Below, one piece after another: positions 18,001 through 21,000 of a stretch of 33,085 bases of DNA. How positions within the stretch are numbered: the first letter of the stretch is position 1; every line of letters starts with the position of its first letter. The DNA is taken from IMG/VR virus record IMGVR_UViG_2740892233_000020. One strand, written 5' to 3'. The stretch is from a virus (lineage: Duplodnaviria; Heunggongvirae; Uroviricota; Caudoviricetes). Position numbers: made by a program.

Positions 18001-21000
18001 TTTTTCAATCAGTGAATGTGCGTAAAGTGCATTATTAACGTTCGCTGACGCCATGTAATAACGCCCGTTGTAAAGAATTGCTGTGCCGGGTTTAACGTCC
18101 TCGCGAGAAACTAATGCGGTTCCGTAGTGAGGTTTGAGCATGACAAATCCTCCGGTTAATTAATCCAGATATTTAATTTAATCCCCGATATGTGGTCGGG
18201 GATGGGGTTAATTAAAGATTTACGTTGAAACCAAAGCGGGAAGACTTTTCTGATGTACGGGAAATATCCAGCAATTTACGGCGCATTTCTTCCGTCAGAT
18301 GCTTGAAGGCGTTAAATTCGGCGACAGCGGCGTCAACGTTATAGCCTTTGCTGTGTAGCTCATTGAGGATGCGCATAGTTGGGCTTGGCATATCGAAGAG
18401 CACGGAAGCATCAAGGCTGATAACCTTGCGATCAACATAGTTCATCGTGGCGTAGGGGTGATGCTCTGAAAACCACGACAAAGGGAAATTGATATTCATC
18501 GCAGGAGAAGACAGGGCCAGTTGTTTCTGTTCCCATAGTTGTTTTTCCATGCGATCGAATTCAGCAATGTAGGCTTCCTTGAATGCAGCTGCTTTTTTGC
18601 CGGTGAAGCCCATCACCAGAAAAACGAAGCCGTTTTTGGTGATTTGGTACATTGGGCGTTGTTCGCCTTTGGCGTCGGTGTAGGTAACGTCCTCAAAATT
18701 GAGGGCGTTAAATTTCTCTGAGCATTCAATATTTGCAATGGCGCGCAATACGTTATCGTGTCGCTTGCAAAAATATTCGGCAACGGCAAAGGACGTAGTA
18801 ACAGCGCGACCATTGGAAATGGTGATTTCAGGTTGAGAAAGGACTGGGATAGTAGCCATAATGGCAGCCTCCTTGATTGGTGATTGATAACCACCGCTGG
18901 AGGTAGCAAGCTCGCTGGCGGTGGACTGTACAGGGTTGCTACAACTGGCAATCAAGGGAACCAGCCCGACCGAAGTCGGCCCCATACAGCCCACCATTGA
19001 TAAGATGTGCGTGTATGTCGATACAAAAAAAGACGCTGGCGCGTCTGTATCGCCTCGATTGTCAGCGGGGTAGCAATCCCGACACCCGTTTTATGAGGTG
19101 TTCGCCAAATATAGCCCCGACATCACACGCAGTCAATACCGTTCTTTCTCAGAAACGCTTTGGCGGTGCCGCCTGCACCCCAAAACATTCCCTGTATTGG
19201 TCAGCGCCAACTTCCTGCCAGTGTTGCCCGTTCTCACGCCGTTCTCGCTCTCGCGCGGGGATACTCTCTCATCGACCGGATCGCACCCGATGATACAGCA
19301 CGTTTACGTGTAGGGGTCTAAACAGGTCATTGACGCTGTAAAGCTCCAGATTGTTAAAGAGCATTTTGCGGCGGGTTAAGTCGCGCCGTACGACTGATTT
19401 ATGTAGCCCTGTGTAAGGGCGCGATGTTTCTGGCTTGAAATAAATATAACTTGCGGTGATTTTCATGTAAATACCGTTGGTGCTTTTTAAGGGCGAGAAA
19501 TTATTACTTAACTGATTTTTAAAGTGATTTATTTTTTAAGGGGGCAGATAACAGGAGGGGATATGCAAAGAAAAACCCGGCGCATGGGCCGGGCTATTTA
19601 TCTGGTCCTGTTCTCATTCAGTAGAGTAGGGGCCAAGAAATCGCACTCCGTTGAAGTGAATAAGATGAGAAGGTGCATCAGCCACCCATACCTCTGTTTC
19701 CCATGCGATTTCACCAAGATATCGCCCCATGATGGAGCGATTTGGAAAAGCGGTCACATAGACAAGTCCGGCTGTTGATCCGGCAAACAGCCTGGCAAGC
19801 TCAGCATGCCGCTTCCCATCAACCGGTCCATGACTGGTGACAGACTCAACCAGTAGCAGCCAGTTTTTCGCAGTAAAATGTAGCACCACATCTGGCATTT
19901 TACCGTGTGAATCCACATCAACACCTAGCCCGGCCAGCAGTGGAGCGTCGAAGTAGCCCCACTTTTCGCCAGTGTCGCCAGCATAGACCAGCACGCTACC
20001 CGGAGCAAAACGTGGGGCGAAGTCCTCTATTATGGCACGGATAAGTTCGCTGTGCTCGCCGGGACTGAGGGTTATTTGCTGGCCCGCAGCAATTTCAACA
20101 GGGATACGATTCTGTTCGCGCTCCTTAGCATAGCGGGTAACCAGCGTTTCACGCTCGGCTAAATAGGTTGCAAGGCTATCGTGCCATGCCGGGCTGCCGA
20201 AAGTGCGTAGCATGGACAGAGCAGCAGGTTCGATCTGATAAACAGCCTTCGGGCTGTTCACTGGGCGATCGGGCTTGTCCGGATTGTAGAGGGCTACTCC
20301 AGCAGCGCAGAACTGATGCATAGACTGGCGGCGGAATGTCTCACGAGTATTGGGTGCGTAGACCTTGCCGTAGTGCTCCCGAACCCAATTCATGATTGGT
20401 GTAATGCCCACAAGCGGATTTTCCGCGTCGGCCCATGCTTTTCCCGGTGTGAGGTTCAGGAGTGCCAGCAAACACAAAGCAGAACGCTCATTCTGCTGCG
20501 CTCTGGGCAGGCCTAAGGATGCTATAATTTGCTGAGCGGCCTCAATATAATCATTTTGGTTGTTCATGCAGTCAGAGCTCCTAGCTTAGCGTCAATATGT
20601 TCTTGCGTGAGAGTTTCTTGTTGCATAGCCCACTTGCCAAGCTCTATCAGAGTGTCACGGCTTGGGTACTTAATCATCTTGAGGTCGGTTGCATTGACCT
20701 GTGTATGCCCGTTGAAGCGACGGAAATACTTATCCACTGCGGTAGTGTTCAGGAACACGGCCAAGCCACGGGCCAGCGCCTCGGGTAACCCATGTTTGTT
20801 CTCATGAAACACGTTCATGTGATTTTCAAATCCCAACACTGAATACTCACTGAAGGTAGCAGGATCAACGACGCTTGCTACCACTCGGCGCTTTTCCTCC
20901 TTCGACGAGAAACGACGCACCACACAATAAAAACCGTTCGGGTAAAGCCACTTTTCTGTCTCGTCGTTGCGCATGATTGCGTTGGGTTTCTTCAAACCTT

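Follow-up and report, generated by a model that had tools for sequence, protein, structure and literature searches.

Early antitermination commits a lambdoid prophage to lytic growth, and in Shiga toxin (Stx) phages it stands upstream of replication, of Q and of toxin release. In the bacterial host, the antiterminator of the ribosomal RNA (rrn) operons consists of boxB, boxA and boxC and works with the Nus factors, SuhB and S4. In both known Nus-dependent systems, boxA is the element that NusB-S10 binds; studies of this binding are available (PMC2800207). A different solution is the put RNA, which comprises approximately 70 nucleotides (nt) folded into two stems (PMC9378689). Here we describe a boxA followed by a conserved structured RNA of about 137 nt in the early-left (pL) leader of a tailed-phage sequence, IMG/VR record IMGVR_UViG_2740892233_000020 (Caudoviricetes). 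The whole stretch analysed, 33,085 nt in length, is referred to as the window, and all coordinates refer to it unless another sequence is named.

The leader belongs to the pL operon of a Stx2a prophage of the Oslovirus type. Positions 18990..19620 are 100% identical to the Stx2a-converting phages P13374, TL-2011c and phiON-2011 (genus Oslovirus), the same stretch is present in 229 complete Escherichia coli genomes, and the phage type is that of the O104:H4 and O103:H25 outbreak strains. The literature we reached gives no account of how early-left transcription is driven in these Oslovirus/Eru1 Stx2a phages (O104:H4, O103:H25), which lack N. None of the publications reached on N or nut in P13374 and TL-2011c, on phi80 nutL and on prophage boxA sequences mentions the element.

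A boxA-linked structured RNA homologous to phi80 nutL

The boxA 13-mer TGCTCTTTAACAA (19363..19351) is the sole exact copy in the window, against a chance expectation of about 0.001 (66170/4^13, both strands counted). A 53-nt rrn-leader query containing the 13-mer was searched in 5426 complete E. coli genomes; in all 5426 the 13-mer lies approximately 130 nt 5' of 16S rRNA, with a median of 7 copies per genome. The match to the rrn boxA core pointed out in a first-pass annotation made from the window alone is thus an exact identity. Conservation in homologous prophages, on which that annotation had made its reading depend, is also found: boxA is kept as YGYTYTTTAACAA in 31 of 31 representative homologues, including those of Klebsiella, Edwardsiella and Xenorhabdus. 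Its consensus YGYUYUUUAACAA is located about 25 nt 5' of the first helix of the RNA (P1) in every representative, and both Xenorhabdus copies have the exact rrn 13-mer.

Homology to phage phi80 begins at the first base of boxA and extends, in a sensitive leader search, over 188 nt with 94% identity (19363..19176). The phi80 record M11919 in GenBank labels the homologous stretch "nutL regulatory signal" (661..938 of that record), and a second record, JX871397, labels a "nutL boxA" and a "nutL core", the core lying 53 nt from the boxA start. The window copy of this core is CACGUAAACGUG (19310..19299). The boxA of phi80 reads UGCUUUUUAACAA, compared with the exact rrn consensus in the window. Laboratory strains such as DH10B, NEB5-alpha and XL10-Gold also carry the element in its phi80-type form, with 94% identity to the window (E. 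coli genome matches H163-H172); in these strains it presumably derives from the phi80 lacZ-deltaM15 insert.

The same block is located 3' of pL in HK225, in the Klebsiella phages KO-TP1 and ST13-OXA48phi12.2 and in Edwardsiella phage Edno5. The distribution of the module was surveyed by scanning viral contigs with an invariant 21-mer from the P5 hairpin, and by scanning one bacterial genome per species, with matches judged by the covariance model R1. The boxA-RNA module was found in at least 120 viral contigs, with 94 unique variants among the matches listed. Full-length model matches, scoring 130-221 bits, were obtained in 16 species-representative genomes belonging to Enterobacter (ten species), Kosakonia, Kluyvera, Citrobacter, one Escherichia species and two Xenorhabdus. 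Four matches in non-enterobacterial genomes were set aside as likely chance occurrences, two (L138, L150) fitting R1 over a 23-nt core only and two (L135, L148) remaining unmatched.

Both the RNAalifold fold and model R1 were derived from an alignment (A2) of 31 representatives with at most about 95.5% identity. The fold comprises five helices, P1-P5, and a variable hairpin, P6 (Table 1). At the window R1 scores 206 bits over its full length (E = 2e-43), the window being one of the training sequences. Over the 26 pairs of the fold, 95.9% of alignment cells are paired; shifting the 3' partners by 1-3 columns lowers this to 33-49%. Compensatory change on both sides is seen in 10 of the 26 pairs, and the observed values were reached in none of 500 shuffles. 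P1 alternates between CAGCGUCA/UGGCGCUG and GCACA/UGUGC types, and around half of the sequences have G-C in place of an A-U pair in P4. P6 differs by subfamily, with the forms CGC-GAGA-GCG, CCC-GAGA-GGG, CACGAU-CUCA-AUCGUG and CCUG-UGAUAU-CAGG. The loop of the P4 core varies even among near-identical copies (UAAA, AAAA, AGAAA, AUAAA, UUUAAU), regardless of whether the locus has phi80 N. Because P2 and P5 hold conserved G-U pairs, the fold is restricted to the pL-sense strand. The Stx lineage carries a double change in P5, from C-G to U-A, unlike nearly all others; the X. szentirmaii copy has the U-G intermediate of this pair and the other Xenorhabdus copy has U-A. The double change in the Stx lineage argues that the fold is still under selection in a phage without N.

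Folded alone, the window element reaches -51 kcal/mol (z = -2.1). A distal CGUG (19238..19235) is an equally good partner for the 5' strand of P4, again with covariation. The local P4 hairpin is favoured by two sequences (L037, L041), and the minimum-energy fold of the single sequence is the long-range pairing. The two pairings could reflect two exclusive conformations.

The element has the two features of a phi80-type nutL, a match to the model and a position just past pL beside the repressor region; the location past pL was checked in the window, phi80, HK225, KO-TP1, ST13-OXA48phi12.2 and Edno5. No second, nutR-like copy was found: R1 detects a single copy apiece in the window, P13374 and phi80, in every case on the pL side, and the pR strand of the window contains no GCTCTTTA. 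A permissive Rfam scan of 18000..23500 returned only isrK and C4, with no match over 19137..19436.

Table 1. Coordinates of the boxA-linked RNA and of surrounding features in the window.
Feature	Coordinates	Strand	Remarks
boxA UGCUCUUUAACAA	19351..19363	-	identical to E. coli rrn leader boxA; start of phi80 nutL homology
Conserved structured RNA	19202..19338	-	~137 nt; P1-P5 and variable hairpin P6; RNAalifold
P1, closing helix	19338-19329 with 19211-19202	-	RNAalifold
P2	19326-19321 with 19221-19214	-	RNAalifold
P3	19315-19313 with 19229-19227	-	RNAalifold
P4, phi80 "nut core" CACG-UAAA-CGUG	19310-19299	-	RNAalifold; enclosed by P1-P3
P5, nearly invariant hairpin	19293-19269	-	RNAalifold; enclosed by P1-P3
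P6, variable hairpin	19258-19239	-	GAGA loop; between P5 and 3' strand of P3
Probable pL promoter TTTACA-17-TATATT	19443..19471	-	aligns with annotated phi80 pL
Operator-like site ATCACCGCAAGTTATAT	19460..19444	-	overlaps the pL promoter-like site
Open reading frame (ORF), 65 aa	19269..19466	-	ATG inside promoter spacer, 5' of likely transcript start; overlaps RNA
Hairpin GCCCU-UACAC-AGGGC (GCCCTTACACAGGGC)	19406..19420	-	lambda boxB stem, non-GNRA-like loop; lineage-specific
Pair of overlapping alternative hairpins directly 5' of boxA	19369..19395	-	AGUCG-UACGGCG-CGACU (19395..19379); CGGCG-N10-CGCCG (19388..19369)
Junction segment	19137..19201	-	phi80 homology ends ~19176; motif remnant CGCCAAAGCGTTTC at 19165..19152; isrK module joins there
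isrK promoter-like site TTGACT-17-TATATT	19108..19136	-	just 5' of Rfam isrK match
IsrK-family small RNA (sRNA) gene	19024..19101	-	RF01394 match 19101..19026; 61.8 bits, gathering 50; E = 7e-12
IsrK Rho-independent terminator	stem 19046..19031 and U-run	-	3' end of isrK match
C4-family antisense-type RNA	18914..19001	-	RF01695; 77.4 bits, gathering 45; E = 2e-14; overlaps start of orf45-like frame
orf45-like leader ORF fused in frame to Rha/AnrP-type regulator	18212..18997	-	261 aa; PHROGs phrog_995/518; first protein gene of pL operon
Intrinsic terminator-like hairpin	19574..19595	-	8-bp stem, 6 GC pairs, T-run; ends cI/methyltransferase/endonuclease block, just 5' of pL
Methyltransferase and BsuBI/PstI-family restriction endonuclease	19614..22033	-	between cI and pL
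cI	22841..22128	-	faces cro
cro	22901..23140	+	faces cI

N genes, downstream cassettes and the 5' part of the leader

Neither lambda N nor phi80 N has a tblastn match in the window or in positions 1-50000 of P13374, where Q is the only annotated antiterminator. Among 130 loci that carry the RNA, tblastn detects phi80 N in 9 and lambda N in none, and about 90% of the loci keep the module without phi80 N. The phi80 N protein is a member of a PHROG of unknown function, and PHROGs assigned no antiterminator family to phi80 N, HK225_041, Edno5 gp50, KO-TP1 gp28, the 65-aa ORF or the neighbouring small ORFs. The first-pass annotation had stated that the leader lacks an N gene, and tblastn, PHROGs and the annotation of P13374 agree at the locus, in the window and in P13374 1-50000.

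The 65-aa ORF seen in that annotation, overlapping operator and hairpin, does exist, and no other ORF is present between the element and isrK. We rejected it as a gene: its ATG is located in the promoter spacer, the RNA that it overlaps changes in a compensatory, not a codon-like, manner, and PHROGs gave no match for it. A 12-codon arginine-rich frame inside the RNA (MREYPRARARTA) was also discarded, as other subfamilies read GUG-UGA there. The first ORF 3' of the element differs across dozens of loci, many of them behind a shared junction motif. Most of these first ORFs encode acidic or neutral proteins unrelated to one another, and no protein family is universal across loci, the commonest being Kil (53 of 81).

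Past the leader, phi80 continues into a 98-aa "N" gene and the terminator tL1, and the window continues into isrK-C4-rha. The Stx phages of the PA2 type track the phi80 leader to the motif CGCCAAAGCATTTC, where the isrK promoter follows. The window type has lost a further ~106 nt ahead of CGCCAAAGCATTTC that PA2-type phages retain, and this deletion spares the structured RNA. The isrK module joins at the very junction motif at which phi80 N starts, and isrK-C4-rha thus fills the slot of the phi80 "N" cassette. The junction motif, CGCCAAAGCATTTCTCCCGCATCAGCGGGTAACGACAGAGGGTAAGG-ATG, consists of a small hairpin and a ribosome-binding site (phi80 L004:3300-3352) and precedes many unrelated first genes. 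It looks as if it marked interchangeable cassettes, with a remnant at 19152..19165 of the window.

The Rha/AnrP-type gene is annotated in P13374 as a transcriptional regulator. In Gifsy-1, isrK, orf45 and anrP form a promoter-driven operon in which some transcripts extend past the sRNA terminator, and translation of these long transcripts is activated by short IsrK; the in-frame fusion of orf45 to the regulator has been noted for Shigella dysenteriae (PMC4825925). The strong terminator that the first-pass annotation had placed at 19024..19046 is present (stem 19046..19031, T-run); it is not simply a terminator of the leader but that of the IsrK sRNA, which has its own promoter.

The IsrK terminator is the sole strong in-sense terminator of the pL operon in the window. 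The pR operon, which does not carry the boxA-RNA module, has no strong in-sense terminator before the late region at 28208. Across 77 non-redundant loci, strict intrinsic terminators downstream of the element number 77 in sense compared with 11 in antisense orientation. At least one in-sense terminator occurs within 2.5 kb in 58 of the 77 loci, and the first is located at a median distance of ~560 nt from the start of the P5 core. In the window the RNA between the pL start and the first ORF is untranslated over ~580 nt.

The pL transcript starts at approximately 19436, near which GAAACATCG is common to the phi80, HK639 and window leaders. The lambda-type operator-like site mentioned in the first-pass annotation is present and overlaps the probable pL promoter. 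A site adjacent to cI and cro, ATCACCTTTGGTTATAT (22847..22863), resembles it; no operator k-mer of 9 nt or longer is common to pL and pR, the only resemblance being ATCACC-N4-GTTATAT. RM13514-type phages have another promoter/operator segment and an identical leader from AAGCCAGAAACATCG on.

Between the transcript start and boxA, the pattern GCCCT-N5-AGGGC has a single match in the window, the hairpin at 19420..19406 (0.04 expected; seen in 4 of 100 shuffles). Its stem is that of lambda boxB, as read directly in lambda nutL GCCCTGAAGAAGGGC and nutR GCCCTGAAAAAGGGC, and its loop is UACAC, compared with GAAGA or GAAAA in lambda. The hairpin ends 43 nt 5' of boxA. The leader segment that contains it is confined to Stx-phage lineages (147 E. 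coli genomes), is missing from phi80- and HK639-type leaders and represents an insertion relative to both, and in one lineage the stem carries the uncompensated change GCCAT. The first-pass annotation was correct that this hairpin exists; judged by its distribution and sequence it is probably not a boxB equivalent. The order of boxB before boxA read there from the hairpin, as in rrn leaders, is likewise not supported, the conserved partner (phi80 nutL core and larger RNA) lying 3' of boxA in the lambda order.

Of the two alternative hairpins closer to boxA, the minimum-energy fold uses the CGGCG/CGCCG pairing rather than AGUCG/CGACU. The CGGCG-N10-CGCCG hairpin (19388..19369) ends 5 nt ahead of boxA and varies in sequence across families; in phi80-type leaders GGCG(G)..(C)CGCC abuts boxA. 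A GC-rich hairpin abutting boxA may loosely recall the boxB-boxA arrangement of rrn leaders, although its sequence is not conserved. On the minus strand, window 19374..19397 (CAGTCGTACGGCGCGACTTAACCC) resembles HK639 CAGTCGAACGGCGCGACAGTAAACC (L133:34296-34320, minus strand), where the annotated putL-like RNA begins.

A possible role in transcription antitermination

We consider the chances about evenly balanced that boxA and the RNA make pL transcription resistant to termination via host Nus factors and without a phage N. What the sequences show is the anatomy, the homology, the covariation, the absence of N and the excess of in-sense terminators downstream; it is the effect on termination, the dependence on Nus factors and the independence from a protein that we infer. 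In such a scheme, loss of repressor would let RNA polymerase leave pL and transcribe boxA, which would recruit host NusB-S10 and other Nus factors. The folded RNA could then stay with the elongation complex, taking the role that N-boxB has in lambda or that put RNA has in HK022. The polymerase would resist Rho over the ~580 nt untranslated leader and would continue past the IsrK terminator to transcribe rha, kil, gam, recT and exo with no phage N. In a lysogen pL would be off, and only the isrK promoter would fire, its transcripts mostly terminating.

We favour antitermination because the only functional label on the sequence is the phi80 "N-utilisation", because boxA is the NusB-S10 element shared by the Nus-dependent systems, and because the module travels with pL while the cargo varies; as a reading of the sequence, boxA and the RNA appear to be a mobile module. 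We also favour it because in-sense terminators are common downstream, the pL operon of the window having the IsrK terminator as its one strong example and the pR operon, without the module, having none before 28208, and because a leader left untranslated over ~580 nt is the situation where Rho acts. It is possible, and we put it forward only tentatively, that boxA with the ~137-nt RNA represents an uncharacterised class of cis-acting processive antiterminator, a protein-free hybrid between rrn (boxA/Nus) and put (polymerase-binding RNA) that would be used by many enterobacterial lambdoid phages, including the O104:H4 Stx2a phage, and in which the two covarying core pairings may be a folding switch.

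Several points weigh against such a role. For the Oslovirus Stx phage any effect on termination is a prediction from the sequence. The phi80 label means N-utilisation, and a protein partner may be needed both there and here. There is one copy per phage, compared with the left/right pairs of nut and put sites. With two equally covarying partners for P4, the fold is still partly ambiguous. Retrieval of the family by an exact P5 pattern predetermines some of the invariance of P5. The Stx phages of E. coli are almost clonal in this sequence, and its conservation there says little. Lastly, negative searches for N are weak because N-type proteins are small and diverge fast.

The main rival explanation is a protein-dependent nut site, in which the RNA would be a platform for phi80 N, or for an unrecognised analogue encoded elsewhere in the phage or in a co-resident prophage, and would be inert without it. 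The phi80 records do annotate nutL beside an "N protein" and the tL1 terminator, a small basic protein follows the element directly in some loci (HK225_041, with 8 K/R in the first 30 residues, in 13 loci), and the nearly invariant P5 loop resembles a surface for specific recognition. We nevertheless find this explanation rather unlikely: phi80 N, of an unknown-function PHROG, is limited to 9 of 130 loci, no protein family co-occurs with the RNA across loci, whose first ORFs are unrelated and for the most part acidic or neutral, the P4 core loop varies irrespective of phi80 N, and no plausible ORF separates the element from isrK in the window. The element might also be a relic, a phi80-like leader gained by recombination whose N cassette was lost to the isrK module and which has no role, the downstream genes being expressed by leaky pL or isrK read-through. 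Clear mosaic joints, with homology running from boxA to the cassette junction, would fit such a history, as would the ~106 nt of phi80-like leader that the window type has lost and PA2-type phages have kept, and the isrK terminator of Gifsy-1 is naturally leaky (PMC4825925). A relic is improbable given that the P5 U-A pair is compensatory, that boxA is improved to the exact consensus over the phi80 form, that the module persists in the ~90% of loci without phi80 N, and that the window-type deletion stops short of the structured RNA.

Two further explanations keep an RNA function. An rrn-style antiterminator would use the hairpin at 19406..19420 as a boxB 5' of boxA and Nus factors alone, and the identity of boxA with that of rrn, the lambda boxB stem of the hairpin and the presence of hairpins ahead of boxA in both the window and phi80-type leaders speak for it. 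With 43 nt between the hairpin and boxA instead of the 3 nt of rrn, a hairpin absent from all other boxA-module families and changed without compensation in one lineage, no boxC-like UGUGUGGG past boxA, and the conserved covarying structure located downstream, we regard it as very improbable. The RNA might instead be processed into a stable regulatory RNA, serve as an RNase III/E site for leader stability, or act as a Nus/boxA-dependent attenuator that promotes Rho action, as at suhB. A single-copy element in a long untranslated leader, with two alternative and switch-like covarying pairings of the P4 strand, is what such roles might look like, and a short RNA would need processing because no terminator ends the element. 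Such other functions also have little likelihood in our view, as a processivity signal accounts better for the constant linkage of the RNA to boxA and to pL, for the variable cargo and for the 7-fold excess of in-sense terminators downstream, and no adjacent ORF start is present whose translation could be gated.

If the antitermination reading is true, it would account for early transcription without N in many enterobacterial phages, and RNA-based antiterminators would comprise a third type besides nut and put. Structural and synthetic biology would then gain a compact boxA-dependent element, and the role of the phi80 "N" would deserve a second look. If the module is inert, the region would be a mosaic leader only.

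Phage context and comparison with known systems

Two different phage genomes are joined in the window (1..12707 and 13000..33085). Positions 1..12707 are about 96% identical to mEp460-type lambdoid phages and 13000..33085 correspond to an Oslovirus Stx2a phage, the identity to Oslovirus Stx2a phages beginning at about 13 kb and running onward. After the leader, the pL operon contains the Rha-type regulator, kil, a gam-like gene, recT, exo and ssb, in this order. The methyltransferase/BsuBI-PstI endonuclease block occupies the position of rexAB in lambda and is closed by the terminator-like hairpin 19595..19574. Four strong in-sense terminators on the plus strand follow the Q-like region (28208..28227, 29258..29279, 29424..29443, 31100..31123), and two near-identical terminator pairs on the minus strand (29198/31046) suggest a duplicated late-leader segment.

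The lambda nutL and nutR sites resemble the present element in being cis RNA signals just past an early promoter, with boxA CGCUCUUA followed by the structure GCCCUGAAGAAGGGC. In lambda, boxB is a 15-nt hairpin 8-9 nt past boxA, whereas the first conserved hairpin of the window is about 40 nt past boxA and belongs to a 137-nt fold. No lambda-type boxB is found at this position: P4 begins 40 nt past the boxA end and has 3-4 bp and a varying loop of 4-6 nt. Lambda has two nut copies and N, compared with one copy and no N gene found in the window. Lacking a boxB-type hairpin, N and a right-hand copy, the element is not a strict lambda nut site.

With the rrn leader the element shares the identical 13-nt boxA and a long untranslated transcript, and no phage protein is needed in the rrn system. 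There the boxB hairpin ends 3 nt before boxA, boxC UGUGUGGG follows, and no large structured RNA lies downstream; direct reading of window 19350..19300 shows no UGUGUGGG. The putL and putR of HK022 and the putL-like RNA of HK639 are comparable as folded nascent RNAs right after pL in N-less lambdoid phages, and HK639 also has a single left copy annotated, a putL-like antiterminator RNA of 126 nt. The put RNA, unlike the window element, has no boxA, and the likeness to HK639 is limited to the ~25-nt stretch 5' of boxA where the put-like RNA begins. Mutations that alter the zinc-binding domain of the beta-prime subunit of RNA polymerase block the action of HK022 put. Model R1 has no match in HK022 20000-33000 or in HK639; with R1 silent in both phages and size and architecture different, we rejected an identification with put RNA.

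The Gifsy-1 isrK-orf45-anrP locus is similar to the region that follows the leader, with IsrK and C4-type RNAs ahead of a Rha/AnrP gene. The Gifsy-1 locus lies 3' of antQ, whereas that of the window is the first pL cassette behind a nutL-type module and has orf45 fused. The closest known counterpart of the element itself is phi80 nutL, which has the same position after pL, 94% identity over 188 nt from boxA and the same core hairpin CACGUAAACGUG. It differs in its boxA (UGCUUUUUAACAA), in the P5 pair, which is C-G there and U-A in the window, and in being followed by "N" and tL1. The phi80 annotations include neither the multi-helix fold nor the wide distribution in N-less phages. Pending experiment, the element is best filed near the nut and put signals, as a boxA-linked RNA family uncoupled from any N gene.

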